Source: a virus (Duplodnaviria > Heunggongvirae > Uroviricota > Caudoviricetes). Taken from it: 42,841 bases of DNA. The stretch lies in IMG/VR virus record IMGVR_UViG_3300030019_000001, one strand, 5' to 3'. The notes under the pieces are model-generated. The model did no database searches, had not been told where the DNA came from, and saw nothing but the letters and a program-made list of their open reading frames with translations. The position numbers and the translations under genes were made by a program. Positions within the stretch are counted from its first letter, which is position 1. Each line of letters starts with the position of its first letter. This document shows, in pieces, positions 741-37,711 of this stretch.

Positions 741-1391
741 ATGATAACAAATTTTAAAAATTTTAATATGAATGAATCTCTATCAAATTTTGATTTGAGC
801 AAATTGGTAACAATAATAGCAATCAATAAAGATCCAGAAGGTAACTGGATTTATAAGACAGACAACAGGATAGAATATATTCTACCAAAAGAACAAGCAG
901 GTAAATTGACATTGATAGATGACAAATTTGCAAACTTTGTAAACTCAGGACACCCAATAACTAAATATTTTGAAACGACTGATGGTAATATCATATCATA
1001 TGTTGCAAATTTCGCAGTTGATGCAGTGGCTTTAAGAGAGGGTAGAGTTTATCTGATAGAAAGGCAAGACGGTAGGGGTTGGGCTTTACCAGGAGGCTTT
1101 ATTGATGCAGGAGAAACACCACAGCAAGCCGTTCTCAGAGAACTAAATGAAGAAACAAAGGCAAAGAGTGATGATATAAAAAACATTGAACCTTTACCTA
1201 TGATTAGAACTAATGATCCTAGGGAAATAAACTTTTTTACATTTCCATTTGTCATTCACATAAAAAACACATCTGAACTATCATTTGATGATGATGCAAA
1301 AAGTGGAAAGTGGATGTTATTAAATAGGGCATCAAAATCACAATTAGCATTCACTCATCACAATGACATTCTAAAAAAAGTATCATTCTAA
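741..1391 (+). CDS. NUDIX hydrolase (possible mRNA-decapping or nucleotide pyrophosphatase type)
   Basis: Nudix box GGFIDAGETPQQAVLRELNEETKA (GX5EX7REUXEEXGU) preceded by REGRVYLIERQDGRGWALPGG. The N-terminus MITNFKNFNMNE carries the recurrent N-terminal motif. Confidence 0.8.
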   Translation: MITNFKNFNMNESLSNFDLSKLVTIIAINKDPEGNWIYKTDNRIEYILPKEQAGKLTLIDDKFANFVNSGHPITKYFETTDGNIISYVANFAVDAVALREGRVYLIERQDGRGWALPGGFIDAGETPQQAVLRELNEETKAKSDDIKNIEPLPMIRTNDPREINFFTFPFVIHIKNTSELSFDDDAKSGKWMLLNRASKSQLAFTHHNDILKKVSF

Positions 1392-1393
1392 TC

Positions 1394-1729
1394 ATGAAAA
1401 AAGTTTATAAATTTGAAGAATATTATAATTACACAAATGATAAAGCTCCAACTTATAACATAGGAGATTATATTCTTGTTTCTAAACAATTAACGAAAAA
1501 AACATACCTAAAAGGCAAATTTATAATTGAAGAAATCGAGTATATAGACTATCTTGATGAATATCAATATGTTGCTTGGGATGGAGTAAAATCGCCAACA
1601 AATATTGGTCAAATTGCAATAATAAGTGGAAAAAGATGTGTATTAGATAAAGACATTAAAAGAAAACTCACACCAGCAGAAATTGAAGAATTTGAGGTTA
1701 GAAAAAATACAAAAAAATACAATATCTAA
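1394..1729 (+). CDS. Small protein, terminal-cassette family A (MKKVYKFEEYY... IGDYILV ... KNTKKYNI-stop)
   Basis: N-terminal MK..K.FE motif, K(V/I)GDY(V/I) motif, C-terminal KKYNI. Paralogous to 28082-28429 and 28426-28767. Confidence 0.6.
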   Translation: MKKVYKFEEYYNYTNDKAPTYNIGDYILVSKQLTKKTYLKGKFIIEEIEYIDYLDEYQYVAWDGVKSPTNIGQIAIISGKRCVLDKDIKRKLTPAEIEEFEVRKNTKKYNI

Positions 1730-1746: not shown

Positions 1747-2223
1747 TTATAAATTAAATTTTAAAGTATCTTTATAAAAATTAAAATGCTCCACATTCAC
1801 ATCAGAAATAATTTTGTTTATATCATTCTGTTTAATAACAGTTGAAAAACTATAATACTCGCCATAATCTTCTTTTGATGACATAAGATGTCTTAAAAAT
1901 AATAGAGCAGTGTTCCATTTATCTTTATGATATGTTTTTACTGATTTACCCCAATGAAAATCTATTTTAATATCAGTATTGTTGGTTATAGTAAAAAGAA
2001 TATAAAAAATAACATCAAATTCTGAAGTAGGATAACTAAATCTATTAATAGTTATCATATATTCATAATCAGGAGGAGAATTAGTCGAATAAAACAAGTT
2101 ACTATCAGCACTCTTCAAAAATTCAACAATTTTATCACCTAACTTAATTACTTTATAGTGAGTATCAAGGTGAGATAAAAATTCTTCAGTGTAGACTACA
2201 TGTTCTTCATATTTTCGAATCAT
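1747..2223 (-). CDS. Hypothetical protein with C-terminal ...KFNL (terminal-cassette group B)
   Basis: 158-aa ORF; C-terminus DTLKFNL-stop; start MIRKYEEH overlaps the stop of the upstream paralog via TGATTTATGA. Confidence 0.5.
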   Translation of the reverse strand: MIRKYEEHVVYTEEFLSHLDTHYKVIKLGDKIVEFLKSADSNLFYSTNSPPDYEYMITINRFSYPTSEFDVIFYILFTITNNTDIKIDFHWGKSVKTYHKDKWNTALLFLRHLMSSKEDYGEYYSFSTVIKQNDINKIISDVNVEHFNFYKDTLKFNL

Positions 2224-2226
2224 AAA

Positions 2227-2703
2227 TCAAATATTGAATTTTTTTGTATTATTTGAAAAATCATACTCCTTGATTGATAATTTTGTTATTAAATATGGGA
2301 TATCATCAATATCAACTGAACCACAAAAAGTATAATATTGTCCAGTTATATCATATGGTAAAAGTATATTTTTAATAAACAATAAGAATTTTTCACATCT
2401 TATCATATCTGTTATACTATTACCACTTTTAACTTCTATAGTAACATATGGATCATAAATAGAATATGAATCATATTCAACTAATTCAGATTCACAATTT
2501 TTAATCTCAAATGTAATGTAAAAAATTTTACTAAATGTATAATTGTCTTTATAAAAAATCAACTGATATTTATCATCTGAAAACCATTTTGATTCACAAT
2601 TAATATGCTCACCTTTCATTATATGTAAAAAAGTTCTAAGTATAGTTTTTGCTAATTTTTCTATATTATTATTTAAATTATACCTATTATAACTATCTAT
2701 CAT
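2227..2703 (-). CDS. Hypothetical protein with C-terminal ...KKFNI (terminal-cassette group B)
   Basis: 158-aa ORF of the same length as its neighbour; C-terminus NNTKKFNI-stop. Confidence 0.5.
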   Translation of the reverse strand: MIDSYNRYNLNNNIEKLAKTILRTFLHIMKGEHINCESKWFSDDKYQLIFYKDNYTFSKIFYITFEIKNCESELVEYDSYSIYDPYVTIEVKSGNSITDMIRCEKFLLFIKNILLPYDITGQYYTFCGSVDIDDIPYLITKLSIKEYDFSNNTKKFNI

Positions 2704-3585: not shown

Positions 3586-4818
3586 TTAATCAATGTTACT
3601 ATTAATATACAAAGTCTCAACGTTTTTCAATTTTTTAGTTGACGTGGAGTCATCTTTATTATCATATATCACATCATTTTTCAATGAATTATCAACTTTT
3701 TTAGACTCATTATATAATTTTTCCATCACTAATTTATTATTTACTATAACATTATCTTCAAATAATTTTTCATTATTTAATTTATTATTTACTATAACAT
3801 TATCATCAAACAATTGTTCATTATTTAATTTGTTATCTGAAACTGCATTTTTATATAAATCTTCATTGGTTAATTTATTATTTACTATAAAATTATCATC
3901 AAATAATTTTTCATTGTTTAATTTGTTGCTCACTAAAACTTTACCGTCAAATAATTGTTCATTGATTAATTTGTTATCTGAACCTATATTTTTATATAAA
4001 TCTTCATTAGTTAATTTATTATCTAAAATTGTATTTTTATATAAATCTGCATTAGTTAATTTGTTGGTAGAATCTATATTTTTATATAAATCTGCATTAG
4101 TTAATTTGTTGGTAGAATCTATATTTTTATATAAATCTTCATTAGTTAAATTGTTGGTAGAATCTATATTTTTATACAAATCTGCATCAGTTAAATTGTT
4201 GGTAGAATCTATATTTTTATACAAATCTTCATTCACTAATTTGTTATCTGAACCTATATTTTTATACAAATCTTCATTCACTAATTTGTTATCTGAACCT
4301 ATATTTTTATATAAATCAGCATTTATTAATTTATTATCTGAACCTATATTTTTATATAAATCTTCATTTGTTAATTTGTTGACTGAATCTATATTTTTAT
4401 ACAAATCACTATTAGTTAATGAATTATCTATTTTATTATTATTGTATAATATTTCATTTTTTGGAGTTTTAATTATATCTATATTATTAAATAGTGATTT
4501 ATTACCTGGTGTTTTAATCACTGATACATTATTAAATACAATTTCTTTATTTGGTGTTTTATTCCTTTCTACAATCAATTCAGATTTTCCAGTCACATCA
4601 TCATTTACACCAAATTTATACATGGATTTATTTGGAGTATTGGTTCTTCCTGTGACAATCTCAGAATAACCTGTAACATCACCCAAATTTTTTATTCTGG
4701 TTATTTTTGAAACTGGTTGAGTATATACAGTTTCTTTATTCGGTGTTAATCCTAATAGTCCATGATTATTAACAATAATTTTATCAATTACATTATCATT
4801 TTTACTTTTTTTACCCAT
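3586..4818 (-). CDS. Tandem-repeat protein with about 20 copies of a 15-aa unit (consensus L-T-N-E-D-L-Y-K-N-I-D-S-T-N-K) plus degenerate N- and C-terminal repeats
   Basis: Translation shows NEDLYKNIGSDNKLV / NADLYKNIDSTNKLT repeated. The DNA has 45-nt tandem repeats. Confidence 0.7.
   Translation of the reverse strand: MGKKSKNDNVIDKIIVNNHGLLGLTPNKETVYTQPVSKITRIKNLGDVTGYSEIVTGRTNTPNKSMYKFGVNDDVTGKSELIVERNKTPNKEIVFNNVSVIKTPGNKSLFNNIDIIKTPKNEILYNNNKIDNSLTNSDLYKNIDSVNKLTNEDLYKNIGSDNKLINADLYKNIGSDNKLVNEDLYKNIGSDNKLVNEDLYKNIDSTNNLTDADLYKNIDSTNNLTNEDLYKNIDSTNKLTNADLYKNIDSTNKLTNADLYKNTILDNKLTNEDLYKNIGSDNKLINEQLFDGKVLVSNKLNNEKLFDDNFIVNNKLTNEDLYKNAVSDNKLNNEQLFDDNVIVNNKLNNEKLFEDNVIVNNKLVMEKLYNESKKVDNSLKNDVIYDNKDDSTSTKKLKNVETLYINSNID
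3633..4470. repeat. Coding 45-bp tandem repeat array (about 18-20 copies, most perfect around 3990-4400)
   Basis: Repeated ...tctatatttttatataaatct(g/t)cattagttaatttgttggtagaa... units are visible in the sequence. This produces the spurious antisense ORF 3593-4669. Confidence 0.8.
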
Positions 4819-5263
4819 TTCCGTTTAATTTTCTTTTCTTAATCATTTCTTCAATATATTGATCTGTAGGTAATTTAATATTTGGATCTATTTTTTTAAT
4901 AGTTTTATCAGAATTATCTTTAATACCTTCTTTTTCATTAATCTCTTTTACTATAGAAGCTAAATAATTTTCTGGACTCATTCTAGAATCATCATCAGTA
5001 TATATCATAGAATAAATAGTATCATCATTAAATATATAAAATTCTTTTGATGATAAAGTAAAATCTTGATAAAATATTAATTTTCCTATTGAACCATATG
5101 TCATAACTTGTGTACCTGTCATTTCCAAATATTTATTCATGAATGGATCTTTAATTCTAACAGTTTCTTGCTTCAAATCAATAAAATTAACACCCAAATC
5201 CATTTTAAATATTGGAATCTTTCTAAATATATTCAACATTTGTGTGTTTGATACTATTGTCAT
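4811..5263 (-). CDS. Hypothetical protein (150 aa)
   Basis: ORF with an ATG; 8-nt overlap with the downstream gene. Confidence 0.45.
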   Translation of the reverse strand: MTIVSNTQMLNIFRKIPIFKMDLGVNFIDLKQETVRIKDPFMNKYLEMTGTQVMTYGSIGKLIFYQDFTLSSKEFYIFNDDTIYSMIYTDDDSRMSPENYLASIVKEINEKEGIKDNSDKTIKKIDPNIKLPTDQYIEEMIKKRKLNGNG

Positions 5264-5814
5264 TGTGTATAAACATTATCTTTTAAATCATTTTGATCTG
5301 TTCCCTTATCATCTGATTTGTCTTTCAATTGACCTAATTTATCAATAATAAAATCTTCTTTTATATCTTCAACATCAACTTCTTCTACCAATTCACCCTT
5401 TTCTTCCATTTCATCATTGAATTGGTGAATTTTAAGCAATATTTTATTTATTTCTAATGCTTTACCTTCAGCTGGAGTTTCAACAGGAGCAGCTCCTTGT
5501 TCTTGTGATTGAGAATTATCAGAACCTTTCATCTCATCAAGTCTAACCATAAATATAACTCTATATCTAAAAAACGAATCCTCTTCTTCAGAATCTTTAT
5601 CTTTAGTTTCTTCAATAGGTTCAGAAAAATTAAAAATTAAAAATTTTTCCATTGGATTAGAATTTGAAATATCTATTTGTCCATCTAATGAGCAACCTTG
5701 AGCAGCTAATGAACCTTCATTAAACCATCTTTCAATTTGAGATTTCAATTCTTTAAAAAACACTGTTATTTTATAATCAGCAGATTCTACATATTCTTCA
5801 AAAAGTTTTTTCAT
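5260..5814 (-). CDS. Hypothetical acidic protein (184 aa, D/E-rich C-terminal half; N-terminus MKKLFEEYVES)
   Basis: ORF with an ATG; it carries the MK..FE-type N-terminus. Confidence 0.5.
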   Translation of the reverse strand: MKKLFEEYVESADYKITVFFKELKSQIERWFNEGSLAAQGCSLDGQIDISNSNPMEKFLIFNFSEPIEETKDKDSEEEDSFFRYRVIFMVRLDEMKGSDNSQSQEQGAAPVETPAEGKALEINKILLKIHQFNDEMEEKGELVEEVDVEDIKEDFIIDKLGQLKDKSDDKGTDQNDLKDNVYTQ

Positions 5815-5897
5815 TTATAATTATTATTATTTTAAAGTATATATAAAAAACACATCATAGAAAATAGTATAATTAAAAATTAATATATAATAGTCAT

Positions 5898-6221
5898 ATG
5901 AAACACATCAAATCATTTGAAGAAAAAATAAATAAAATATCAATAGATGAATTAAAAAATCATGGAATATCAAAAGATTCACCATTTTTGATTAGTGATA
6001 ATGAAAAATTACCAAAAGATACTAAATTTAAAATTGGAGATCATGTTAAAATAAATACAAATAACAATGAATATATCTACAAAATAGAATATTATTGTAT
6101 TGAAACTAAAAAATATACTTGCTTCATAACAATAGACACATTTTCAAGACAATGGATATATGAAGATGAATTAGAATTGGTTCCAGATTATGAAATATCA
6201 TCAAAAAAATTCAACATATGA
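5898..6221 (+). CDS. Small protein, terminal-cassette family A (MKHIKSFEE ... KIGDHVKI ... SSKKFNI)
   Basis: N- and C-terminal cassette; the stop TGA overlaps the next ATG (AACATATGAAA). Confidence 0.6.
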   Translation: MKHIKSFEEKINKISIDELKNHGISKDSPFLISDNEKLPKDTKFKIGDHVKINTNNNEYIYKIEYYCIETKKYTCFITIDTFSRQWIYEDELELVPDYEISSKKFNI

Positions 6222-6586
6222 AATATATTAAGAAATATGAGAACATAGATGAACATGTTAATGCAGAAGGTAAATTTTGGGAAATAAATACAGATGAACC
6301 ATATTTTGAAATCTCATTAAATAAACTTGGTTTTGATGAAGAGTTAAAGGAAAAAATATATGGAATGAATAACTCCTACATAAAAAATAGTGGATTAGTT
6401 TATATTTATATTATTAAAACAAATTTATCATACTTAGGCACATCAGTAACATGGAGTCATGTTACTGATTTCATAAAAGATACTGCAATAGAAAACGGTA
6501 ACAAATATATGGGAAAAGTTGAAATAACCGAAGATGATATTAAAAAATGGAATCTAATTAAAAAGACACAAAAATTCAACTTATGA
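6218..6586 (+). CDS. Small protein, terminal-cassette family A (MKYIKKYEN ... KKTQKFNL)
   Basis: Same cassette; ATGA overlap on both sides. Confidence 0.6.
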   Translation: MKYIKKYENIDEHVNAEGKFWEINTDEPYFEISLNKLGFDEELKEKIYGMNNSYIKNSGLVYIYIIKTNLSYLGTSVTWSHVTDFIKDTAIENGNKYMGKVEITEDDIKKWNLIKKTQKFNL

Positions 6587-7215
6587 AATACTTAAAAACA
6601 TATGAAGAAGGAATATCATCAGGTAATGCATCTGGAAAGGCAGGAGTAGGTTCGATTCCGTTTGGTAGAGGATATATGCAATCTGGTGGTAATAATGGAG
6701 CCAGTGGCATTGTATTCACTGCTGTTGGAGAACCATCATTCACCACATATAAAAGTATGAAGCATTCAAAAAAAGAATTAAAAGAGAAAAGAAGAAGACT
6801 TAGAATGTTCAAGAAATTCAGAAATGAAGGATTCATATCAGAAAAAATAGATGATTCTGGTTGGAATTGGGGAATAGTAAACAATGATAAAAATATTGGA
6901 AAATATATTATAATGAAAGATTCTGAAGAGTATTCATTCGCTTCAACCAAAGGAATAAGAAAAGAATTAGATACATTTGTTCAGAATAATACCGGAGAAA
7001 TAGTTTTATCAAGAAAATCAGCAGTTGGAATTTCTTATTTGATAAAATATGAAAATATACCAGACAATTTGAAAGAGCAATTTAAATCTTGCAATTTTTT
7101 AAATGATGAAGAAAATATATATTTACCTATAATAAAAAGACATAACAAAATTGAATTTATAGGTTCAAAAGAAGAATGTGAAATTAAAATATCAACAAAA
7201 AAATACAATATATAA
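6583..7215 (+). CDS. Terminal-cassette family A protein (210 aa; MKYLKTYEE ... Gly-rich GNASGKAGVGSIPFG ... ISTKKYNI)
   Basis: Cassette termini; shares the Gly-rich G..G.GSIPG segment with 7218-7610. Confidence 0.6.
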   Translation: MKYLKTYEEGISSGNASGKAGVGSIPFGRGYMQSGGNNGASGIVFTAVGEPSFTTYKSMKHSKKELKEKRRRLRMFKKFRNEGFISEKIDDSGWNWGIVNNDKNIGKYIIMKDSEEYSFASTKGIRKELDTFVQNNTGEIVLSRKSAVGISYLIKYENIPDNLKEQFKSCNFLNDEENIYLPIIKRHNKIEFIGSKEECEIKISTKKYNI

Positions 7216-7217
7216 AT

Positions 7218-7610
7218 ATGAAAAAATTTGAAGAATTTATGAAAGAAGATGCGTGTGCCACTCTCGGTAACACAGGAGGTATGGGCGCTATTGTAGCTGC
7301 TCAACCAGGAAGTATTCCTGGAACTCAAGGTACCACTGGCTCTGGTGATATTAGTCAAACTCTTGCCACATATTCTAAACCTGCTATAAATATGAAAAGA
7401 CATAAGAAAAACAAGAAAAATAAACTAAGAAAAGTAGAATCATTTGATGGTTTCATGAAGGAAGAAAATGAGATAATAGATAATTTCACAGCAAGATATT
7501 ACGACAATTATGATGACGAAGAAGAACCAAGTTATGAAGTAAATTTACAAGACATAGAAGAAAACAATATCAAAAAAATTCAAATGTACGAAAAAGATGA
7601 AAATAAATAA
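7218..7610 (+). CDS. Family A-related protein (MKKFEEFMKE ... GNTGGMGAIVAAQPGSIPGTQG ...) lacking the KFN(I/L) end
   Basis: Paralogous N-terminal half with 6583-7215. The C-terminus KDENK overlaps the next ORF by 14 nt, so this may be a frameshifted or fused family member. Confidence 0.45.
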   Translation: MKKFEEFMKEDACATLGNTGGMGAIVAAQPGSIPGTQGTTGSGDISQTLATYSKPAINMKRHKKNKKNKLRKVESFDGFMKEENEIIDNFTARYYDNYDDEEEPSYEVNLQDIEENNIKKIQMYEKDENK

Positions 7611-7893
7611 ATTTAACCAACTAAATGAATCAGATGAAATATCATACAATAAATCATTAGGATATGATAACTCAATGTTTGATAGTCTATCTGAATTGTA
7701 TAAATTATGGACAGACGCTGAAGGCTTATCTCATTTTTCAGCGGATGAATACGGATCAGAAGATTTGACAGATAAACAAATAGATTATTTAGAAAATTTT
7801 AATGATTTTTTGGAATTAACTCAAGACTTTGAACAAGATTATCATGAAAATGGTTATGCTTTAATTAAAAAAACAAAAAAATTTAACTTATAA
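7597..7893 (+). CDS. Small acidic protein ending ...KKTKKFNL (family A C-terminal cassette); the N-terminus MKINKFNQLNE contains an internal KFN remnant
   Basis: ORF; C-terminal cassette. Confidence 0.5.
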   Translation: MKINKFNQLNESDEISYNKSLGYDNSMFDSLSELYKLWTDAEGLSHFSADEYGSEDLTDKQIDYLENFNDFLELTQDFEQDYHENGYALIKKTKKFNL

Positions 7894-7999
7894 AATATGG
7901 ATAGCATAAGATCAAAATATCAGAAATATGGTGTTAAAAATTATTAAAGTGATAAAATACGCATCAAGTTTTTATATCACCGTAAATTAATATCAATTT

Positions 8000-8887
8000 T
8001 TATTTTTTATTCATATGAAAACAAATCTCGTTTAACCAACCACTTTTATATGATTTAGAATACGCACTAATAGATTTCATATAAAATTCAGATCTAGTCT
8101 TATATTTTAATGCTTCTATTTGACATAATTCTTTTGTCCAATAACCATTTGGTTTTACTAATGGTGTCATATGCAAACATATTTCTTTTAACCATTTATT
8201 TTTTAATGAAATTGTATATGCTGATGCTGATTGTTTTTTAAATTCAACTTTTGTATTAAATTTATTTGCTTCTATTTGACATAATTCTTTTGTCCAATAT
8301 TTTTTACCACCTGTTCCTCCTGTTTTACACTTATTTAAAATTTTCCAATCATTATTTTTATATTTATTAACATAATCCTCTTCTAATATTTTTGATAAAT
8401 AAACATCAATATATTCACTTAATTTTTTAAATTTATAATTATTATTTTTTTGTATATGTTCATAAACTGAGCCTTTTCTTAAATGTTCATTAAATCGTCT
8501 ATCTAAATCACAAGTCAATCCAATATATGCATAGTTATCAGAAAATTCATAAACATAAATACATCTTTTATATAAATCACCCATACACTTCATATGTGAG
8601 CATATTTCATCTATCCATCCATATATTAATGATTTACCATAAATATAACTTGAATTTTTCCTAAATTCATTTCTACTATTAAACTTCAAAGATTCTTTTT
8701 GACAAAAATCTTTTGTCCAGATATATGATTTATTTTTTCTCATATGAGCACAAACATCAAATATCCAATTATTTCTAATTGAGATTCCATATACTTGTTT
8801 ACATTTTATCCTAAATTCTTTTTTAGTTTTATATTTTAATGCTTCTTCAGTGCATTTTTCAATAGTCCATATTTTTTTATCTATCAT
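8000..8887 (-). CDS. GIY-YIG family endonuclease (homing-endonuclease-like) with two N-terminal and two C-terminal ~43-aa W.(K/E).C..E(A/S)LK(Y/F)..R.EF.......Y.....W..EIC.HM repeats
   Basis: Core CIYVYEFSDNYAYIGLTCDLDRRFNEHL (GIY...YIG...R...E). Repeats WTIEKCTEEALKYKTKKEF..., WTKDFCQKESLKFNSRNEF..., WTKELCQIEANKFNTKVEF..., WTKELCQIEALKYKTRSEF... Confidence 0.8.
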   Translation of the reverse strand: MIDKKIWTIEKCTEEALKYKTKKEFRIKCKQVYGISIRNNWIFDVCAHMRKNKSYIWTKDFCQKESLKFNSRNEFRKNSSYIYGKSLIYGWIDEICSHMKCMGDLYKRCIYVYEFSDNYAYIGLTCDLDRRFNEHLRKGSVYEHIQKNNNYKFKKLSEYIDVYLSKILEEDYVNKYKNNDWKILNKCKTGGTGGKKYWTKELCQIEANKFNTKVEFKKQSASAYTISLKNKWLKEICLHMTPLVKPNGYWTKELCQIEALKYKTRSEFYMKSISAYSKSYKSGWLNEICFHMNKK

Positions 8888-8983
8888 ATAAGTTATTTTT
8901 AAGTATATATTAAAAACTAATTATCATAAACTAAATAAAATAAAAATAATTAATTTTATATATAATAAAAATAATTAATTTTA

Positions 8984-9532
8984 ATGAAACACATCAAATC
9001 TATACATGAACATGGAATTAGAGATGAATACACAAAAATTGGTATTAAAAAATATTATACTGATAATAAAGAAACATATATTAATCCGCATGAAGATAAT
9101 ATCAAATTAGTATTGAATTGGTGTTTAAAAAAAATTAATATAACAAACTTTATTGATTTGTCATGTGGCAATGGAGAAATAACCAAATATTTATCTAAAA
9201 ATGGAATAATTGATGCAATTGGCACAGATCCATATTTTAATAATATTTATACAAAAAAAACAGGAAATGAATGTTTAAAACTTTCATTCGAGGATATAGC
9301 AATACATGGATTAAATTTACACAAACAAACAATTATCTGTTCGTATGCACTTCATCTATGCACCAACTCATATTTTAATCAGTTGATGTATAATTTATCA
9401 TTAAACTGTAAATATTTCATTTTAATATCACCAAGTAAATACCCAATCATCACAGAAGATTATTTTGAATTTATTGATGGAATAATTATCAATAGAACAC
9501 ATTGTAAAATATATAAAAGTAAAAATAATTAA
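8984..9532 (+). CDS. Putative class-I SAM-dependent methyltransferase-like protein
   Basis: Motif I-like IDLSCGNGEITKYL, then IIDAIGTDP and IICSYALH. N-terminus MKHIKSIHE. Identification rests on the motifs only. Confidence 0.4.
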   Translation: MKHIKSIHEHGIRDEYTKIGIKKYYTDNKETYINPHEDNIKLVLNWCLKKINITNFIDLSCGNGEITKYLSKNGIIDAIGTDPYFNNIYTKKTGNECLKLSFEDIAIHGLNLHKQTIICSYALHLCTNSYFNQLMYNLSLNCKYFILISPSKYPIITEDYFEFIDGIIINRTHCKIYKSKNN

Positions 9533-12722: not shown

Positions 12723-12729
12723 AAATTTT

Positions 12730-13923
12730 TTATTCTGAATAAATATTAGGATAAGATGTCAAATAATACAAATTTGATTTTTGCTTAATTAATATATCAT
12801 CTGAAGGTTGATAACCTAATTCACCATTATTAAATACCACATTATTAAATATACCACAAAAAAATAATCCATTATTTATTATTCCACCTGTCCAAAAACC
12901 GTTCCACCAAGCACCATTATTAAATACTCCGTCTGTCCATATACCCTCAAGCCAGGCTCCATTATTAAAATCACCGTTTAAATGAGTACCACCATACCAA
13001 GTACCATTATTCCAAGTGCCACCAGACCATATCGTTCTATTATGATTATCTGATATTGACGTTAATCCTGATTGAACATTCAATCCTGAATGAAATTCAC
13101 CGTTATAAAATGTTCCATCATGCCAAATAACAGATGGAAAATCCAATTCTGTTGTTCCTGACACAGGCCAAGATCCAAATCTACTTAGTATATTTGGATC
13201 TGTTTGATTAAATTCTCCTTTCCACCAATGGCAAGAAGATGATGATGAAGTACCCAATGATTGAACAACATTTGGATTACCAATAAAATCACCACCATTA
13301 AATTTACCTCCCCACCACTCACAACCTTGAAATGTACCATTTAAAAATGTACCATTAAGCCATTCACTATTATAAAAAATTCCATTTTTAAATATACTAT
13401 CTGTATCATAATAGCTCAGCCAAACAGAATTACGAAAAACTCCATTATGAAAAACTCCTGATTCCCACCTTGTGTCATAATAAATAATTTCACTGTTTAA
13501 CATTTGAAACCAATCTTCCTTTAGAATATCAGAACCAAAATAACCATTAAAAAATTCTCCTCTTCTCCAAATACCTCTTCTAAATTGTGAATATATTGGA
13601 TTATTTTTCTCTATAATTCTAATATTTCTTTGTAATAATTGATTTGTATCAAAACGATATGAATAAAATTTACCATTCTTCCACTCACCATCTTCCCATA
13701 TACCAGAATACCATGTACCATCTTCCCATTCACCTGCTTTCCAAGTACCAGAATACCAAACCAATCCATAGTCATCTTGACCTATTATTGCATTTTCAAT
13801 AATTGCATTCAATAACCAAATATATTTTCTTTTAATAATATCTGGTGTTAAACCATCAATCATAACACAATTTAATAATGCATCAGAATAATTGGTTATA
13901 TTATAAATATTTGTTGTTGCCAT
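12730..13923 (-). CDS. Trp/Gly-rich repeat protein (MORN-like G.W..G.F.NG units repeated more than 15 times)
   Basis: WYSGTWKAGEWEDGTWYSGIWEDGEWKNGKFY ... GVFHNGVFRNSVW ... NGTFLNGTFQGCEWWGGKFNGGDF ... GGTWNNGTWYGGTHLNGDFNNGAWLEGIWTDGVFNNGAWWNGFWTGG. Confidence 0.6.
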   Translation of the reverse strand: MATTNIYNITNYSDALLNCVMIDGLTPDIIKRKYIWLLNAIIENAIIGQDDYGLVWYSGTWKAGEWEDGTWYSGIWEDGEWKNGKFYSYRFDTNQLLQRNIRIIEKNNPIYSQFRRGIWRRGEFFNGYFGSDILKEDWFQMLNSEIIYYDTRWESGVFHNGVFRNSVWLSYYDTDSIFKNGIFYNSEWLNGTFLNGTFQGCEWWGGKFNGGDFIGNPNVVQSLGTSSSSSCHWWKGEFNQTDPNILSRFGSWPVSGTTELDFPSVIWHDGTFYNGEFHSGLNVQSGLTSISDNHNRTIWSGGTWNNGTWYGGTHLNGDFNNGAWLEGIWTDGVFNNGAWWNGFWTGGIINNGLFFCGIFNNVVFNNGELGYQPSDDILIKQKSNLYYLTSYPNIYSE

Positions 13924-28081: not shown

Positions 28082-28429
28082 ATGAAATATTTAAAAAATT
28101 TTGAAAATGAATTAACCACTGAATATAAAGTAGGTGATTATGTATCAATTAACTATGATACAAAATCTAACACATTAACAAAGTTGAAGGATTTTGTGAA
28201 TAATTCGATAGGAAAAATAATGTTTATTGATGATAAAAGTATGATTATTCAATATGTTAATATTCCAGATAAAATAAAACATTTTTTTTCTGATAAAAAT
28301 GTTGGAAAAGATAAAATAAAAAATTCTGTATTTTTTTGGAATAAAAATAATACAATAAAAAGATTAGCAACAGATGATGAGATAATAGAATATGAAGCAA
28401 TTAAAAATACAAACAAATTTAACATATGA
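28082..28429 (+). CDS. Small protein, terminal-cassette family A (MKYLKNFENELTTEYKVGDYVSI ... KNTNKFNI)
   Basis: Cassette termini; close paralog of 28426-28767. Confidence 0.6.
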   Translation: MKYLKNFENELTTEYKVGDYVSINYDTKSNTLTKLKDFVNNSIGKIMFIDDKSMIIQYVNIPDKIKHFFSDKNVGKDKIKNSVFFWNKNNTIKRLATDDEIIEYEAIKNTNKFNI

Positions 28430-28767
28430 AGCACTTAAGATTATTTGAAAGCCAACTAAAGCCTAAATATAAAGTAGGAGATTATGTTCATTTAGATATG
28501 GAGCCAGATTTTACTTATGATGATTGCTTAGGACAAATACTTAAAATAGATAAAAACGGATTCATAAACGAACCTGAAGAAACAGATTCAAATAAAAAAC
28601 ATGATAATTATATTAACACATTAAATCTTTACCCATATAAAGTTAAAATATTGGATGGTAAATTCGATGCTGAAGAAGGCTTAATAGATAGATATATGAA
28701 AAAAGATGAAATAGAATATTTTGAGTATTTATTAAAGAATAAAGATACTAAAAAATTTAACATATGA
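28426..28767 (+). CDS. Small protein, terminal-cassette family A (MKHLRLFESQLKPKYKVGDYVHL ... KDTKKFNI)
   Basis: Cassette termini; ATGA overlaps on both sides. Confidence 0.6.
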   Translation: MKHLRLFESQLKPKYKVGDYVHLDMEPDFTYDDCLGQILKIDKNGFINEPEETDSNKKHDNYINTLNLYPYKVKILDGKFDAEEGLIDRYMKKDEIEYFEYLLKNKDTKKFNI

Positions 28768-29542: not shown

Positions 29543-29887
29543 TTATATATTAAATTTATTTGTAGTGAATAAAAAATTCAACTCATCAAAAGTTTTTATC
29601 ATCCAATTATTTCTATTAGCCCATTGGTGATCATTGTATTTGTGTATTACAATATCTAATCTATCGTTGGCTAATTCAATTGTAGTAAAACTTTCAATGT
29701 TGGTATTTTTCTTTTTAAGGATATCTATATTACTTGAATCAATTTTGTCAGTAAGAACAAATTCTTCAATTCCAAGAATTATTTTATATAATATAAAATA
29801 ATCTCCTTCATCTGGTTTGAATAAAACTAAGAAATATTTTTCTTTTTCTTTTTTTCTTTTAAATATATTAAATTTTTCAATTATCAT
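29543..29887 (-). CDS. Terminal-cassette group B protein (about 115 aa from ATG MIIEKFNIFKRKKEK...; ends FTTNKFNI). The track ORF extends to a TTG at 29932, through a duplicated copy of the start region.
   Basis: C-terminal KFNI; the N-terminus lies inside a 52-bp tandem duplication. Confidence 0.5.
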   Translation of the reverse strand: MIIEKFNIFKRKKEKEKYFLVLFKPDEGDYFILYKIILGIEEFVLTDKIDSSNIDILKKKNTNIESFTTIELANDRLDIVIHKYNDHQWANRNNWMIKTFDELNFLFTTNKFNI

Positions 29888-29950
29888 AATTATATATTTT
29901 CTTTTTTCTTTTAAATATATTAAATTTTTCAATTATCATAATTATATATT
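29856..29950. repeat. Two direct copies of a 52-bp unit (ttttcttttaaatatattaaatttttcaattatcataattatatatt) duplicating the 5' end and start codon of gene 29543-29887
   Basis: Copy 1 is at about 29856-29898 and copy 2 at about 29908-29950. Each contains the reverse-complement ATGATAATTGAAAAATTTAATATATTTAAAAG. Confidence 0.8.
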
Positions 29951-30373
29951 AAATTTTCTTGTTGATATTATCCATGATGGAGTATAATTTACAGCATTTA
30001 AAAATAAATAGTATGAAAAAATGAAATATGAACTTTTCCAAACCAGTGATGTTTTATTTGTATATTCTTCTATTTCATAATATAATTTTGGTGTTTCTTC
30101 TATTTTCGTTATCACAGAATCTAATGTATATTTTTTTACTTCTCTTTGTATTTTTTTATTTGTTTTTTTATTATCTGTTTTCCAAATATATGGATATTTA
30201 TACATAAATATTAATAGTGCGAATTCATCATAACAAGAATATGGTATACCTCTATATGTGAAACTATCAGTTATATTTTCTTCATATTTCTTTTTATATA
30301 TTTCTTCATAATTATTTAGAAATTTTTCAGTATCAGAACTAATTTTTATAGAGGAATTTATTTTTGAGTTCAT
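29942..30373 (-). CDS. Hypothetical protein (143 aa) ending ISTRKFNI (terminal cassette)
   Basis: ORF with an ATG; C-terminal KFNI immediately followed by the duplicated start region of the next gene. Confidence 0.5.
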   Translation of the reverse strand: MNSKINSSIKISSDTEKFLNNYEEIYKKKYEENITDSFTYRGIPYSCYDEFALLIFMYKYPYIWKTDNKKTNKKIQREVKKYTLDSVITKIEETPKLYYEIEEYTNKTSLVWKSSYFIFSYYLFLNAVNYTPSWIISTRKFNI

Positions 30374-30455
30374 ATATTATTTTTATTTATAATTATATTT
30401 CGCAAAGATACAAAAAAAATATAACCTTTACTAATAATTATCATCTTTTATATTA

Positions 30456-30893
30456 TTATAAGTTGAATTTATTTGAGATTCTTGTTAAATTCATTTCATT
30501 GATTACTTTTTTCTGTTTTTCTGTAATATTACCATAAATAGTAAATGATGATTTATTGTCAACATGGTAAATATAATTATCATTTGTAGTTAATATTAAT
30601 GATAATAGAACAAATATTCTTTTCTTGTGTTGTAAAGTGCCTTGATATCCAGTCGTACACTCTGTTATGGTGTTGATTCTACCTTTAACTATTTGAGGTA
30701 CATCTATAAAAATATTTTTTTCTTTATCATAACAATTCTTACAATTAAATTCAACTAATGTATCAACTATCAACAAATTACTAAGAAATTTTTTAATTTT
30801 CGTGTAACTACCAGAATAGTAATTTAACAAATCATTTAGTATGAATGTTGTTTCGGTTTCTGTATTTTCAAATATTTTGAAATTTATAATCAT
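30456..30893 (-). CDS. Terminal-cassette group B protein (MIINFKIFENTE ... EFNCKNCYDKEKN ... TIYGNITEKQKKVINEMNLTRISNKFNL)
   Basis: Clear paralog of 31308-31727 (same N-terminus, CxxC, TIYGNI and C-terminus). Confidence 0.6.
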   Translation of the reverse strand: MIINFKIFENTETETTFILNDLLNYYSGSYTKIKKFLSNLLIVDTLVEFNCKNCYDKEKNIFIDVPQIVKGRINTITECTTGYQGTLQHKKRIFVLLSLILTTNDNYIYHVDNKSSFTIYGNITEKQKKVINEMNLTRISNKFNL

Positions 30894-30894
30894 A

Positions 30895-31311
30895 TTAATT
30901 AATTTTTTTCCTTAAATAATTAAAAACAATTTCAAAAAATATCAGTTTAATTGAAAATGCCAACATAACAAACCAAATAGATGTATTCAATGTGATTATA
31001 ACAGATGCAAGAATCATAGTTATTTCAGATATAAACCAAAATAAATGCCATGCATCAGTAAACACAACAAAAATAGTAGTACTTCCTATGAATTTTTCTC
31101 CATTTAATGGATTGGCATTTTTATATTTATTGAGAGACCCCAATCCTTGTTCCCAAAATTTTGGATTTAATTTATATTTTAAATATAATCTTGACTTGTA
31201 AAATAAATTAGGAGAAGATGATATATCAGTTATAGATTTAGATATACCAGATATTAATAATAAAAAAAGTATTATTAAAATGTTTAAAATTGCTGAAGTA
31301 GTTAGTATCAT
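30895..31311 (-). CDS. Predicted multi-pass membrane protein (138 aa) embedded between two group B paralogs
   Basis: Hydrophobic segments MILTTSAILNILIILFLLLISGI and ITMILASVIITLNTSIWFVMLAFSIKLIFF; its start overlaps the KFNI-TGA of the upstream gene. Confidence 0.5.
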   Translation of the reverse strand: MILTTSAILNILIILFLLLISGISKSITDISSSPNLFYKSRLYLKYKLNPKFWEQGLGSLNKYKNANPLNGEKFIGSTTIFVVFTDAWHLFWFISEITMILASVIITLNTSIWFVMLAFSIKLIFFEIVFNYLRKKIN

Positions 31312-31727
31312 ATGTTAAATTTATTTGCTTGTCTTTTTATATTAATATCATTTATTATTTTTTTTATATCACCAGGAATATTTCCATAAATTGTCATCTG
31401 AGAATTTGTGTCTACTATATGACTAAATTTTATTCTTTTCAATCTCAATGTTAAGTATATATGTTTAAGATCATAATTAAATCCATAACTTCTACCGTTT
31501 ATAATTCCTTTATGATGTTTATTTGAATGTATAAAATTTGTAACACCATTTATATCATCTGTACATTTATTACAATTAAATTCAACAATGTTATTGTTGA
31601 AATTAAATAATTTGAAAATGAAATTTCGTATTGAATCTTCATGACTATCAAAGTAATCTACAATATCATCCAATACCAATGTGACTTTATCATCTGAGTT
31701 CTCGAATAATTTGAATTCTGTTATCAT
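31308..31727 (-). CDS. Terminal-cassette group B protein (MITEFKLFENSDD ... EFNCNKCTDDING ... TIYGNIPGDIKKIINDINIKRQANKFNI)
   Basis: Paralog of 30456-30893. Confidence 0.6.
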   Translation of the reverse strand: MITEFKLFENSDDKVTLVLDDIVDYFDSHEDSIRNFIFKLFNFNNNIVEFNCNKCTDDINGVTNFIHSNKHHKGIINGRSYGFNYDLKHIYLTLRLKRIKFSHIVDTNSQMTIYGNIPGDIKKIINDINIKRQANKFNI

Positions 31728-31741
31728 GCTGATATATATAA

Positions 31742-32920
31742 TTATTTGAATTTGTTTTTTAATACTTGATATTGAGATTTAACAGAATAATAAGACCTAT
31801 TTAATTTTTTAGCACAACATTTTATTCCTATATGATAATTTTCAATTAAAAAAATAATATCATCTTCTGGCCATGAATTTTTTCTTTTTTTTGCTATCAT
31901 ATGAGAGCATATATCTTTATACCATTCATTTTTAATTGCAGATGCTGCTGCACTACTATTGTTTTTTAGAAAATCATCTTTATAAATATATTTTGATGCC
32001 TCGTATTTACATTTTTCATATGTCCAAAATTTAGCAGATCCTCCTAATGTACTTTTTTTGTTAGTATTTAATAATTTCCAATTATTATTTTTGTATTCAT
32101 TCATATAATATTCTTCCAATTTCTGTGCTTCTGATTTATTAATATAGTCAGTTAATTGTATCAATTTATATTTATTGCTTGCTTTTTGTAAATGTTTGTA
32201 AATTGGACCTTTTTTAATATGCTCCTGCTCTCTAATTTTTATATTATATGTCAATCCAATATATGCACAATTATCATCAAATTCAAAAGCATAAATACAT
32301 CTAAATTCTTTACTACCAATTTTTATCATATGTGAACAGATATCATTAGATATATTATTTACATTTGAAAAATTATAAGCACCTCTATATTTTTTTTGAA
32401 AATCATTTCTACTATTACACTTTAATGCTTCTTCTTTGCATTTATCATAATTCCAATAATTATTAACATAAGTCATATGATTACAAATTTTTTCTATCCA
32501 TTTTTTTGAAATAGATATTCTATATGCACTAGCATCATTTTTTCTAAAATCAGTTCTGGTTAAATATTTTAATGCTACTTCTTGACATTTTTCTATTGTC
32601 CAGTAATTATTAGGTTTATGACTTAAATTCATATGAGAACAAATACTATTTAGCCAATTATTTTTTAATGACTTATTATATGCAGTTGCTTCATTTTTTT
32701 GAAAATCTGATATAGAATTATAATTTAATGCTGCTTCTTGACATTTATTGTGTGTCCAATGTCCTGGAGTATTAATTTTATATTTCATATGTGAACAAAC
32801 AATATTTAAATATTTATTTTTTACACAAGCATTATATGCTAAATTATCTAATTTTTTAAAATCACTTCTATATTCATATTTTAATGCTGCTTTTTGACAT
32901 ATTTCTAATGTCCATTTCAT
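31742..32920 (-). CDS. GIY-YIG family endonuclease (homing-endonuclease-like) with four N-terminal and one C-terminal ~43-aa W..E.C..(A/E)AL.Y..R.DF.K...AY.....W...IC.HM repeats and a C-terminal helix-turn-helix-like tail
   Basis: Core FRCIYAFEFDDNCAYIGLTYNIKIREQEHIKKG. Repeats WTLEICQKAALKYEYRSDF..., WTHNKCQEAALNYNSISDF..., WTIEKCQEVALKYLTRTDF..., WNYDKCKEEALKCNSRNDF..., WTYEKCKYEASKYIYKDDF.... Tail NSWPEDDIIFLIENYHIGIKCCAKKLNRSYYSVKSQY. Confidence 0.8.
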   Translation of the reverse strand: MKWTLEICQKAALKYEYRSDFKKLDNLAYNACVKNKYLNIVCSHMKYKINTPGHWTHNKCQEAALNYNSISDFQKNEATAYNKSLKNNWLNSICSHMNLSHKPNNYWTIEKCQEVALKYLTRTDFRKNDASAYRISISKKWIEKICNHMTYVNNYWNYDKCKEEALKCNSRNDFQKKYRGAYNFSNVNNISNDICSHMIKIGSKEFRCIYAFEFDDNCAYIGLTYNIKIREQEHIKKGPIYKHLQKASNKYKLIQLTDYINKSEAQKLEEYYMNEYKNNNWKLLNTNKKSTLGGSAKFWTYEKCKYEASKYIYKDDFLKNNSSAAASAIKNEWYKDICSHMIAKKRKNSWPEDDIIFLIENYHIGIKCCAKKLNRSYYSVKSQYQVLKNKFK

Positions 32921-33089: not shown

Positions 33090-36000
33090 ATGAAAATTGC
33101 TCACTTAGCTGATGTTCACATTAGAAACCTTGAAAGACATGAAGAATATAATGATATTTTTCAAAAAATAATAAAAAAATTACGCAAAATTACACCAGAT
33201 AGAATTGTTATTGTTGGTGATTTATTTGAAAGTTATATTGAAATTTCAAATGAAGCTGAAATTATAGCTGGAAATTTCTTAAATGAATTATCAAAAATTG
33301 CTAAAGTTATAATAGTTCGTGGTAATCATGATATTCGTAAGAAAAATTTAAATAGAATCGACAGCATAGAAACTGTAGTTAAACTAATGAATAATCCAAA
33401 TGTTACTTATTATGATAAAACTGGATTTTATGATGATAAGCAAGATAACAATTTTGTTTGGGTTGTTTATGAACACTCAGATAAAGACAACGATCCATGG
33501 AAAAATATTAAAAAATATGATGGTAAAATATATATTGGGTTATTTCATGACCCAGTTTTAAATGTAACATCAAATACTGGTAAAGTTTTTAATGATGCAA
33601 ACAAGTACAAAAATATGAATTATTTTAATAATAATGATTTTGTGCTAATAGGTGATATCCACAAGCGTCAGTATTTAAGAAATGATAAATCTGCTGCATA
33701 TTGTGGCTCAACTATACAACAATCATATGGTGAAACAATTGAAAATCATGGTTTTTTATTATGGGATATAAAATCACCATCAGATTTTGATGTCACTGAA
33801 TATGATATTGACAATGAACACACTTTCATAAATCTTTATATTGATGAATCATCAGATTATGACAATTTAAATTTGTCTGCTGATAAAATTGGAACAGATA
33901 CTGAAATTAAAGTTCATTGGAAAGAATATTCATCAATTATAAATACTGTTAATGAAAAGAAAATAAGAGATTATATTAAAAATAAATTTAGCACAACTAA
34001 AGTTATTTTTGAAAAAGTTTATTTATACACAGATATATTATCATCAAAAATGCTATCAGAATCAATTGATTTGACTGATACTGAAACACAGAAAGAAATA
34101 TTTAATGAATATTTAGAAGAGCAAAAATACAAAAAAGATGATATTGAATCTATTCTTAAAATTGATGATATAATAAATAGTAGAGTTCAATTGGTAGAAT
34201 GCTTAAAAAATACTGAATGGAGTATTGATAAATTCTGGTTTAGTAATTTTAAATCTTATGGAGATGATAATGTTATAGATTGGGCTGATATTAATGGAAT
34301 TGTACAAATTCATGGAGAAAATCAGGAAGGTAAAACAACTATTTTAGATGCACTTACTTATATTCTTTATGGTAAGACTACGACAACATTAAGTCCTGAA
34401 AAATTTGGAGATTCAAGATATATAAATAACAAAAGAGATTTAGATTATGTTAATGGTGGTGCAATTATTAATTCAAATGGTAATAAATTCGTTATTCAGA
34501 GAAAGACAGAAAGAGTTTGGAATAAGAATCACACGGCATTAACAAGCTGTCCTACATCATTGGATTTTTATAAAAGCGAGAATATTTGTGAAGAAAATAA
34601 ATTAACAGATGAAATTAAAGCTAAGACTCAAAAAGAATTGGACTCTATTTTAGGAGATTTGAAAGATTTTATTAGATTGTCATTCACTAATGCTGATAAT
34701 TTAAATGATTTATTATCAGAAAATAGAAGTGTATTTATGGATAACATCATCAGAGATGCTGGTTATGATATTTTTGAAATTAAATTGAATGAATTTAAAG
34801 AATATAAAAAAGAATTAGTAGAAGAAAAATTAATAGTAAATATTCAAGATTCTGAATCTCGTGTGAAAGAATTGAATACTGAAATTATTGATATTAAAGA
34901 TATTATTGATACTAATAATTCTGATATTGAGAAGCATGAAAAAGAATTATCTGATTATAATACAGATAGAGATAATTTAAATAAAAAATTAAATAATATT
35001 GATTTATCAATGTTAACTTTTAATGAAGATTTAAATTTGAATACCATCAACAATTATGAATCTAAAATTGAAGAATCTAAAATTCAAAGCACAATTTTAG
35101 ATAGAGACATTGATAAATTACCTACTGAATTCGATTCATCTAAACTTGATGAATATAAAATTAAATTGAAGCAAACGAACTTGAAAATTTCTGAACGAAA
35201 AGATGAAATTTCAAATTTGAAAACTTCATTATTAGAATCTGATAATAAAATAGATAAAGTTAATATTAAAATTGATGAATTAAAACAATCTGAAATTAGA
35301 AAAATATCATCAAAAATAAATGCAAATGATTTACAAATTGAAGTTATTAAAAATAATAAATCTAATATCATAAAGGATGAAATAAAAAAAATAACATCAG
35401 AAATTCAAGAATTAGAATTAAATTTAAAAGAATTATCATCTAATATAAAATTATTACAAAAAGATGGAGTTAACGCTAAAAATTCAAATGAGGAATTAGA
35501 TAAAGAAATAGAAACATTCAAAAATTCAAAATCTTGTCCTAGCTGTGGTAGAGATTATGATAAAAATGATCCAAAATATTCAGAACACTTAGCTCATTTA
35601 GAAGATAAAATTAAAAGTCTTGAAATTAAAAAAGAACCAAATTCTTTGATAATTAAAGATTGTATATTAAAGTATAAAGATTTAAAAAATGAATCTATTG
35701 AATGTAATACAAATATTCTTAATTTGGAAGACATGAAAAAAAGGTTAATTCAAGGAGAATACCCTGATGATATATTATCTAAATTGAAAGAAATTGGTAG
35801 CAGTAAGAAGTTGACTCAAGACAATTTAGATTTAAATAAATTAATAGAAAAAATTGAGAATAACATATTTGATGAATCTGAAACATTAAATGAAAATATT
35901 GAGAAAGGGAAAGAACTAATAAAAAACATAGAAAAAGGCAAATTAGATACATCAATTGTAATAAAAAATATTGAGTCTGAATTGAAAAATTTTAATGTTG

Positions 36001-37628: not shown

Positions 37629-37711
37629 TTTTAAAAATTATATATAAAATGGATAGTTTTTATTTTTTGTTCCTAATATACCATTACTTTGATAATGTAT
37701 ATCAATCATTA

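Follow-up and report, generated by a model that had tools for sequence, protein, structure and literature searches.

The locus at positions 5898-7893 of the virus record IMGVR_UViG_3300030019_000001 (Caudoviricetes, IMG/VR) raises the question of why five consecutive small genes begin and end alike while differing in between. This record, a stretch of 42,841 nt referred to here as the window, has a GC content of about 23% and is densely coding, with about 55 genes, many of which show an ATGA overlap between stop and start codons. A previous description based on the letters alone, called here the sequence-only reading, had recognized at this locus a tandem array of five plus-strand open reading frames (ORFs) and had proposed that their conserved termini behave as a portable cassette on variable cores. 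The five ORFs (ORF1 to ORF5, Table 1) are present with the N-termini quoted at that time, and they form a single operon-like array whose genes belong to a very large multigene family, present in some of the huge phages. Each member of this family is made of an N-terminal tag (the start tag), an interchangeable core and a C-terminal tag with a free carboxyl end (the end tag).

The five-gene array

Four of the ORFs had been described as ending in KKFNI or KKFNL. Four tagged C-termini were indeed found, but they read KKFNI, QKFNL, KKYNI and KKFNL, so that the motif is K[F/Y]N[I/L]; ORF4 ends in DENK and has no end tag. Likewise, the TGA/ATG overlap attributed to every junction is observed at two of the four, where an ATGA joins ORF1 to ORF2 (at 6218) and ORF2 to ORF3 (at 6583), whereas ORF3 stops at a TAA separated by 2 nt from the ATG of ORF4 (7215/7218) and ORF5 starts 14 nt inside ORF4. 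The interiors had been considered largely unrelated, which applies to ORF2, ORF4 and ORF5, none of them matched by a profile of the SH3-like core from which the tags had been trimmed. This core is, however, shared by ORF1 (E 3e-5) and, in its C-terminal half, by ORF3 (E 1e-10). As for the Gly-rich segment that ORF3 and ORF4 were thought to have in common, it corresponds to two different conserved leader modules. Known families offer little guidance: Pfam gave nothing above its cut-off on the five ORFs, the sole PHROGs match among them is that of ORF5 to phrog_9962 (function not known; E 1.5e-7), and neither database returned anything useful for five further members.

A family spread over the window and over related genomes

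Far from being confined to 5898-7893, as first described, the feature belongs to a family present throughout the genome and the lineage. Of the ~55 window genes, 13, located on both strands, end with [T/S/A]-x-K-[F/Y]-N-[I/L]-stop, and they form four clusters (1394-2703, 5898-7893, 28082-28767 and 29543-31727). The frequency of this end motif lies far above what an AT-rich composition predicts, since its DNA form, AAATTYAAYWTATRA, was counted 11 times in the window, where shuffled sequence gives an expectation of 0.17, and this count was reached in none of 100 shuffles. In addition, a stop codon directly follows 16 of the 31 K[FY]N[IL] matches found in the six frames. An out-of-frame EKFNI-stop preceding gene 28082 was discarded by comparison with the relative L020 as a coincidence of the last codons of the preceding gene.

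In IMG/VR, the junction pattern was found in at least 116 stretches, many of them on contigs of 100-330 kb and with up to ten consecutive junctions. Among the 116 stretches fetched (related DNA amounting to roughly 1 Mb of loci), 98 contain tagged ORFs, with as many as 10 genes in one array. The other 18 lack tagged ORFs and represent chance matches. All five stretches from giant-virus bins are among them, and giant-virus bin contigs were thus rejected as carriers of the family. At the protein level, the SH3-like core type is represented by 2,878 clusters at 50% identity in a set of 1.84 billion representative metagenome proteins, and K[FY]N[ILV] ends 130 of the 134 new top matches of this search, most commonly as KYNL. 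Cellular genomes are essentially devoid of the family, as 185,579 bacterial and archaeal genomes gave only 13 matches to the junction pattern, 12 of them by chance. A 5.7-kb contig from a Muribaculaceae bin (CAYVSY010000054.1, GC 25%) carries a tagged gene ending in ..ANKYNL that overlaps the next gene, starting MKYLKT.., by an ATGA; it is probably a mis-binned phage fragment, which gives a weak hint of a Bacteroidales link and no firm clue to the host. A tblastn search with one SH3-like member found no match in 50,697 phage records. No mention of such a family was found in the papers searched on huge phages and the Mahaphage clade or in a jumbo-phage review, and no description of it was found in Pfam or PHROGs.

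Shared tags on unrelated cores

The start tag takes the forms MKY[I/L]KxFE, MIT[K/N]FKx[F/Y]E, MK[I/V][K/E]RFNE and MKKFEEFI. In the case of the end tag, 322 distinct ORFs of the fetched DNA that end in [FY]N[ILV] have K at position -4 in 97%, F (88%) or Y (11%) at -3, N at -2 in 100% and I (52%) or L (46%) at -1. Both tags tend to occur in the same protein. Of the 1,215 distinct ORFs with 60 amino acids or more, 872 are untagged and 217 bear both tags; the start tag is found without the end tag in 35, and the end tag without the start tag in 91 (odds ratio 59, p 2e-125). Compared without their tags, 325 members group into 121 BLAST clusters, of which the largest (85 members) is the SH3-like type with vGDYV...nnIGK...Y.NIP. 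A Pfam scan of 119 longer tagged proteins identified leucine-rich repeats (LRR) in 23 and ankyrin repeats in 17, together with methyltransferase, NUDIX and 5'-nucleotidase (NT5C) domains and a weak ART-PolyVal match. SH3-like barrel, LRR and ankyrin cores bear both tags, and the NUDIX protein and the weak ADP-ribosyltransferase match bear the start tag only. The tags are portable between unrelated folds, and the proposal of a portable cassette is strongly supported by this diversity of cores and by the co-occurrence of the tags. At a practical level, about a quarter of the window genes and thousands of metagenome clusters can be annotated simply from two short tags.

The opposite view would be that the members are ordinary paralogs by descent whose termini are the slowest-evolving parts of one fold, devoid of any signal function. 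It draws on the fact that the largest group is one SH3-like family conserved over its full length, which includes ORF1 and ORF3. Nevertheless, LRR and ankyrin proteins flanked by the same tags cannot share a fold with a barrel of 100 amino acids, and the start tag lies outside the folded part in both structural models obtained, making this view highly improbable.

These AlphaFold models correspond to gene 28082-28429 and to ORF3. In the former (81-sequence alignment, pLDDT 78), residues 1-12 have a pLDDT below 50 and are followed by a beta core (20-95), a terminal helix (98-112) and a low-confidence tail. In ORF3, residues 1-37 are largely below 50, and a basic helix (63-82) precedes a folded domain (~100-195) and a confident terminal helix (196-207). 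From these predictions, the start tag looks like an exposed linear motif, probably disordered, and the end tag is located at the end of the terminal helix. Compared with PDB structures, the SH3-like model gave weak, non-specific matches to eL21-type ribosomal protein barrels (TM 0.3-0.4). The models also bear on a structural role of the termini, in which homo- or hetero-oligomers would form through pairing of an N-terminal strand with a C-terminal helix or strand, belonging either to the same protein or to a neighbouring one. Such pairing would agree with the similar K-F-(E)-N element of both tags, with the joint production of array proteins from coupled genes and with the confident terminal helix of ORF3. 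It is very unlikely, though, given that the start tag is a low-confidence coil in the monomer models and that proteins with only one of the two tags exist.

Peptide or nucleic acid signal

Selection on the tags acts at the peptide level. Synonymous codons in both tags are used near background (TTT/TTC for F, AAA/AAG for K, GAA/GAG for E, ATA/ATT/ATC for I), with two exceptions: AAC encodes the invariant Asn in 41-58% of cases against an 11% background, and the last codon of the end tag favours those ending in TA (ATA or TTA). The end tag is retained where no gene follows, both in the convergent pair 1394-1729/1747-2223 and at 7893, and the end motif is absent upstream of ordinary gene starts. 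In five of six cases, the RNA of the junction has less structure than its shuffled counterparts (z +1.2 to +2.7), the sixth being near neutral, and no excess of promoter- or terminator-like sites was detected. Codon variation, the presence of the tag at convergent ends and the unstructured junction RNA therefore indicate that the tags are selected as peptides. Several explanations had been offered in the sequence-only reading. A promoter or 3'-end signal embedded in coding sequence finds no support, as the junction RNA is poorly structured, promoter- or terminator-like sites are not in excess and the motif is missing from general upstream regions. A C-terminal peptide signal is the best supported option, on account of codon variation and convergent ends, and the start tag is also of low confidence in both models.

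The same evidence bears on the possibility that the junction is a translational signal, acting through termination-reinitiation or -1 frameshifting at A_AAA_AAA, with the peptide motifs as mere by-products. The open junction RNA would suit such a signal, as would the in-frame A_AAA_AAA created by Lys-Lys end tags, with the next ORF in the -1 frame, and the occurrence of a natural two-unit fusion, P0153. However, Lys occupies position -5 in about 22% of members, so that the slippery site is not a family trait; moreover, the junctions have no stimulatory structure, the end tag is present without a downstream gene and general gene starts lack the motif. Altogether, this explanation is extremely improbable and, like that of ordinary paralogs, it is largely contradicted by the data. 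Two specific candidates were rejected on these grounds, programmed -1 frameshifting as a family trait (slippery heptamer in ~22% only, no downstream structure) and structured RNA at the junctions. It is plausible that the open, AT-only mRNA of the junction is a secondary benefit for coupled translation. The fusion P0153 (243 aa) joins two SH3-like units, and in it the end tag, the stop and the start tag have decayed to a linker (..ASKLQVNIISKKLKHLKLYE..).

Gain and loss of genes in the arrays

Comparison with relatives reveals a turnover of array genes. The stretches L114 and L046 (from IMG/VR contigs of 95 and 126 kb, respectively) carry orthologs of ORF3 and ORF4 at 71-90% identity (71-74% for ORF3) and both lack ORF1, for which no ortholog was found in the fetched relatives. 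L114 also contains an ORF2 ortholog (72% identity), an extra tagged gene of 147 aa between the ORF3 and ORF4 orthologs and an ORF5 ortholog with a GAA to TAA nonsense change. At the site of the second array (28082-28767), L108 has six tagged genes versus two in the window and in L020, and the flanking protein of 300 aa is 92-99% identical. Arrays gain and lose whole genes at gene boundaries.

This turnover agrees with one part of an earlier suggestion, unequal crossing-over with homogenized junctions; the other part does not hold, as the junction DNA of the five-gene array is 74-89% identical over 30-40 nt and hence not homogenized. A broader version considers the termini as recombination handles, whole genes being duplicated, deleted or swapped through short junction homology and the junctions being kept alike by gene conversion. 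The regulatory cassettes of T4-type phages may act as recombination handles for gene swapping. Consistent with a comparable role here, copy number differs exactly at gene boundaries between close relatives, the same ATGA overlap is found at 271 of 366 junctions and there is a nucleotide bias beyond the peptide (the AAC and ATA or TTA preferences). Yet, besides the modest identity of the junction DNA, variation at synonymous sites is close to background, isolated members and convergent gene ends retain the tags, these persist across lineages in which core identity has dropped to 25-35%, and K and N of the end tag are nearly invariant in the protein. As the main reason for the conservation of the tags, recombination is accordingly quite unlikely.

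A possible address label for capsid loading

A clue to what may read the tags comes from phage T4, whose capsid targeting sequence (CTS) is MKTYQEFIAE (PMC8442874). When translated, T4 ipII, ipIII and ipI start with MKTYQEFIAEA... and MKTFKEFTS..., the latter being IPI. ORF4 starts with MKKFEEFMKED and its homologs with MKKFEEFIAEDA or MKKFKEFIKEDA; in one of them, P0114 (MKKFEEFIAEDA, MKKFEEFIAED), 7 of 10 residues agree with the T4 CTS, among them those of the I-A-E cleavage context. The main tag MKY[I/L]KxFE has M1, K2, a hydrophobic residue at 3/4, F7 and the following Glu in common with the CTS, a resemblance that goes no further than similarity. The targeting function of the CTS is carried by residues 4 and 7 (PMC9026906), and the family keeps a hydrophobic residue at 3/4 and F/Y at 7. 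An exact T4-like start and an end tag occur together in two fetched proteins, and the tag variants are therefore linked. The [L/I]-x-E cleavage context is found in the ORF4 type (F-I-K-E, F-I-A-E) and in the MITKFKIFE variant.

Beyond the CTS, the T4 internal proteins are diverse. They are basic, loaded into the prohead core and injected (PMC3012670; PMC9026906), and T4 Alt is an ADP-ribosyltransferase cleaved at both ends (PMC9026906). Similarly, an N-terminal signal of less than 30 residues is sufficient for loading the large P1 enzyme DarB into the capsid (PMC9024508). By analogy with these systems, it is tentatively proposed that one common partner recognizes the tags as address labels, the most likely purpose being the loading of the proteins into the capsid and their injection. 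The N-terminal tag would dock the protein to the prohead core, like the CTS of the T4 internal proteins and Alt and the signal of P1 DarB, and the head protease would then trim it, as in T4. The protein would enter the host with the DNA, where some proteins of this kind (T4 IPI*, P1 Dar) counter host restriction. The arrays would represent fast-changing stores of injected binder and enzyme effectors, in which the junction (end tag, ATGA, start tag) would keep the mRNA unstructured for coupled translation and would offer short homology for cassette gain and loss.

A number of observations weigh against this proposal. The commonest start tag has K, T or N three residues before Glu and falls outside the gp21 rule [L/I]-x-E. 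The end tag has no counterpart in T4, and its presence on about a quarter of the window genes would imply very many different packaged proteins. No match to T4 gp20, gp21, gp22, gp23, gp67 or gp68 was found in the window and the ~1 Mb of loci, which cover part of these genomes; in a search of a phage collection, gp21 matches were swamped by T4-like phages. A 40-kb sample of the related 636-kb phage LR756504 contains start-tag-like genes and no end-tag genes. Finally, a likeness to the T4 CTS over 10 residues could be convergence in an AT-rich genome.

The main contender is that the tags are docking motifs or degrons for a chaperone or protease machine (ClpXP, Lon, DnaK/DnaJ) or for a PDZ-type reader, the proteins being either adaptors that bring bound host proteins to the machine or effectors whose lifetime is controlled by the tag. 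C-terminal recognition peptides resembling the end tag include MuA RRKKAI, the SspB tail LRVVK and class II PDZ ligands. Several features of the family would suit this role, namely the requirement of the end tag for a free C-terminus (aromatic-x-aliphatic-COOH after Lys), the disorder of the start tag in the models, the abundance of pure binding modules (LRR, ankyrin, SH3-like) among the cores and a full-length DnaJ encoded three genes downstream of the array. On the other hand, the likeness to known degrons extends over 4-6 residues, that of ORF4 to the T4 CTS would be left unexplained, and no F-box or PRANC-type adaptor domain was found by Pfam in the 119 longer tagged proteins. On balance, docking or degradation is unlikely.

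A more general possibility, itself doubtful, is that a single reader of the N-terminal MKYIKxFE and the free C-terminal KFN(I/L), be it part of the prohead or some other machine of the phage or the host, constitutes a previously unrecognized sorting system of huge phages, routing (for example, to capsid loading and injection) hundreds of LRR, ankyrin, SH3-like and enzyme effectors per genome. Were this the case, the arrays would be a programmable effector arsenal far exceeding those known in phages. The matter is relevant because huge phages contain hundreds of small genes without an assigned role. If the tags load capsids, a very large and rapidly changing set of injected binders would explain part of the genome size, would point to new anti-defence proteins and would supply short peptide tags for putting foreign proteins into large capsids. 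If they have another reader, they would point to a new protein-sorting or turnover system.

Comparison with known systems

In T4, as in this family, a short N-terminal peptide is all that the unrelated small proteins IPI, IPII, IPIII and Alt have in common (PMC3012670). The T4 peptides MKTYQEFIAE and MKTFKEFTS resemble MKKFEEFI(K/A)ED and MKY[I/L]KxFE, and the T4 cargo includes an ADP-ribosyltransferase, to be compared with the weak ART-PolyVal match found here. The IP loci also vary between related T-even phages, as do the arrays described above (121 core clusters, two versus six genes, the L114 pseudogene). Unlike in T4, the present family has a strict C-terminal tag, is orders of magnitude larger, includes LRR and ankyrin cores and carries a main tag outside the gp21 rule. 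The P1 Dar proteins share the use, or proposed use, of an N-terminal signal (DarB) for capsid loading and delivery with the DNA (PMC9024508), but they have no consensus signal, no tandem arrays and no C-terminal tag.

Poxvirus ankyrin-PRANC/F-box proteins and other families of large DNA viruses also combine variable repeats with a conserved terminal element, tandem expansion and copy-number variation. However, PRANC is a domain of 40 residues, whereas the tags comprise 6 residues at the end and 8 at the start and show no PRANC or F-box match; besides, the host of the present phage is bacterial, to judge from the coupled ATGA gene overlaps and the huge-phage relatives. The PeSL cassettes of T4-type phages consist of intergenic promoter and hairpin DNA around small variable genes. 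These genes are likewise bounded by repeated sequence that could allow modular shuffling, but in the array the repeat is coding, lacks a hairpin and is conserved as a peptide, and the genes abut or overlap without a spacer.

Genome context and other features

The window very probably derives from a phage of ~0.7 Mb, judging from gene similarities. A conserved window protein of 397 aa is 29-39% identical to those of uncultured huge phages of 735, 642, 636 and 634 kb, and other window genes have their closest similarity to Mahaphage genomes of 634-735 kb, the largest of this clade, for which Bacteroidetes hosts are predicted (PMC7162821); the P0083 contig (Table 1) points to a similar size. The window includes genes for the full DnaJ, a RuvC-like resolvase, a NUDIX hydrolase, a HAD phosphatase and two GIY-YIG endonucleases, and no tRNA genes.

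Table 1. Coordinates of the array, of further tagged genes and of adjacent features in the window
Feature	Positions	Strand	Length (aa)	Description
ORF1	5898-6221	+	107	start tag MKHIKSFEE; weak SH3-like core (KIGDHV); end tag SSKKFNI
ORF2	6218-6586	+	122	start tag MKYIKKYEN; core unrelated to SH3-like type; end tag TQKFNL
ORF3	6583-7215	+	210	start tag MKYLKTYEE; Gly-rich leader module, basic helix, SH3-like domain; end tag STKKYNI
ORF4	7218-7610	+	130	T4-CTS-like start MKKFEEFMKED; module ATLGNTGGMGAIVAAQPGSIPG...GSGDI, poly-Lys stretch, acidic tail
ORF5	7597-7893	+	98	start-tag variant MKINKFNQ; acidic helical core; end tag TKKFNL
Intergenic AT-rich region	5815-5897			between divergent genes 5260-5814 (-) and 5898 (+); holds TATATAAT-like sequence
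Acidic protein	5260-5814	-	184	CTS-like start MKKLFEEYVES; divergent neighbour of array; 92% identity in L114, kept in relatives
Family member	1394-1729	+	111	MKKVYKFEE ... NTKKYNI; SH3-like core; same sequence as P0083 of a 711,471-bp contig
Family member	1747-2223	-	158	MIRKYEEH ... DTLKFNL; convergent with 1394-1729, so no downstream gene
Family member	2227-2703	-	158	end tag only (NTKKFNI); core related to 1747-2223
Family member	28082-28429	+	115	MKYLKNFEN ... NTNKFNI; reference for SH3-like core type
Family member	28426-28767	+	113	MKHLRLFES ... DTKKFNI
Family member	29543-29887	-	114	MIIEKFNIF ... TTNKFNI
Family member	29942-30373	-	143	end tag only (STRKFNI)
Family member	30456-30893	-	145	MIINFKIFEN ... 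ISNKFNL; paralog of 31308-31727 (E 4e-15)
Family member	31308-31727	-	139	MITEFKLFEN ... QANKFNI
NUDIX hydrolase	741-1391	+	216	NUDIX E 3.6e-17; start-tag-like MITNFKNFN; no end tag
117-aa protein	19487-19840	-	117	start tag MIIEFKMYEN; weak ART-PolyVal match (E 4.9e-4, under Pfam cut-off); no end tag

ORF4 has 60 database relatives, which start with MKKFEEFI(K/A)EDA, continue with ATLGNTGGMGAVVAAQPS.TPG...GSGDIGQ and then show a poly-Lys stretch. The N-terminal half of ORF3 is the second leader module, fused in relatives to methyltransferases or to the ORF4 module, and it behaves like a transferable propeptide. Both Gly-rich, Lys-tailed modules (6583-6810 and 7218-7440; P0094-P0140; SEVSSGNASGKAGVGSIPFGRGY... 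and ATLGNTGGMGAVVAAQPS.TPG...GSGDIGQ) are widespread in metagenomes, where they occur alone, fused together, or fused to methyltransferases and other domains.

Downstream of the array, a GIY-YIG endonuclease gene (8000-8887, minus strand) lies beside a methyltransferase gene (8984-9532) that has 34% identity with the methyltransferase occupying this site in relatives, where neighbouring genes are 72-92% identical. A remnant of 16 codons of the methyltransferase start of the relatives is found at 7897-7947 (MDSIRSKYQKYGVKNY-stop), and the segment 7897-9532 looks like a homing-endonuclease-linked gene replacement. The methyltransferase of the window starts with MKHIKS, and its first 17 nt are identical to those of ORF1. 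The second GIY-YIG endonuclease gene (31742-32920) and a membrane-like ORF of 138 aa (30895-31311) are absent from the otherwise collinear L020, in which the tagged-gene cluster directly abuts the Mre11-Rad50 gene. In the window, this gene (33090-36845) encodes a single protein of 1,251 aa with an Mre11/SbcD-type phosphoesterase N-terminus and an SMC/Rad50-type P-loop region, which are usually encoded by two genes.

Two repetitive proteins are encoded on the minus strand. One (37712-39352; 546 aa) is a collagen triple-helix repeat protein (Pfam E 1e-31) with overlapping repeat-derived ORFs on both strands. The other (3586-4818; 410 aa) is built from a 12-residue unit (NKLTNEDLYKNIDS-like) repeated in tandem about 20 times, and the long mirror ORF opposite to it is probably spurious.

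Regarding transcription signals, the intergenic region 5815-5897 is likely the promoter region of the five-gene operon, and no sigma-70 promoter excess was detected. A TATATATAA(T)-like sequence recurs 10-25 nt before the starts of operon-first genes (e.g., 5870-5895, 8955-8975, 12724-12745, 25395-25425 and 37630-37650); it recalls the T4 late promoter TATAAATA and may be a phage promoter element. A perfect 19-nt AT-only inverted repeat (AAAAAAATACAATATCTAA / TTAGATATTGTATTTTTTT) at 1709-1747, between two convergent genes, may act as a bidirectional terminator. One of its arms consists of the last codons of gene 1394-1729, including the end tag KKYNI and the stop, and palindromes of this kind are present at other convergent gene ends (10898/10960, 14718/14756 and 29021/29050).

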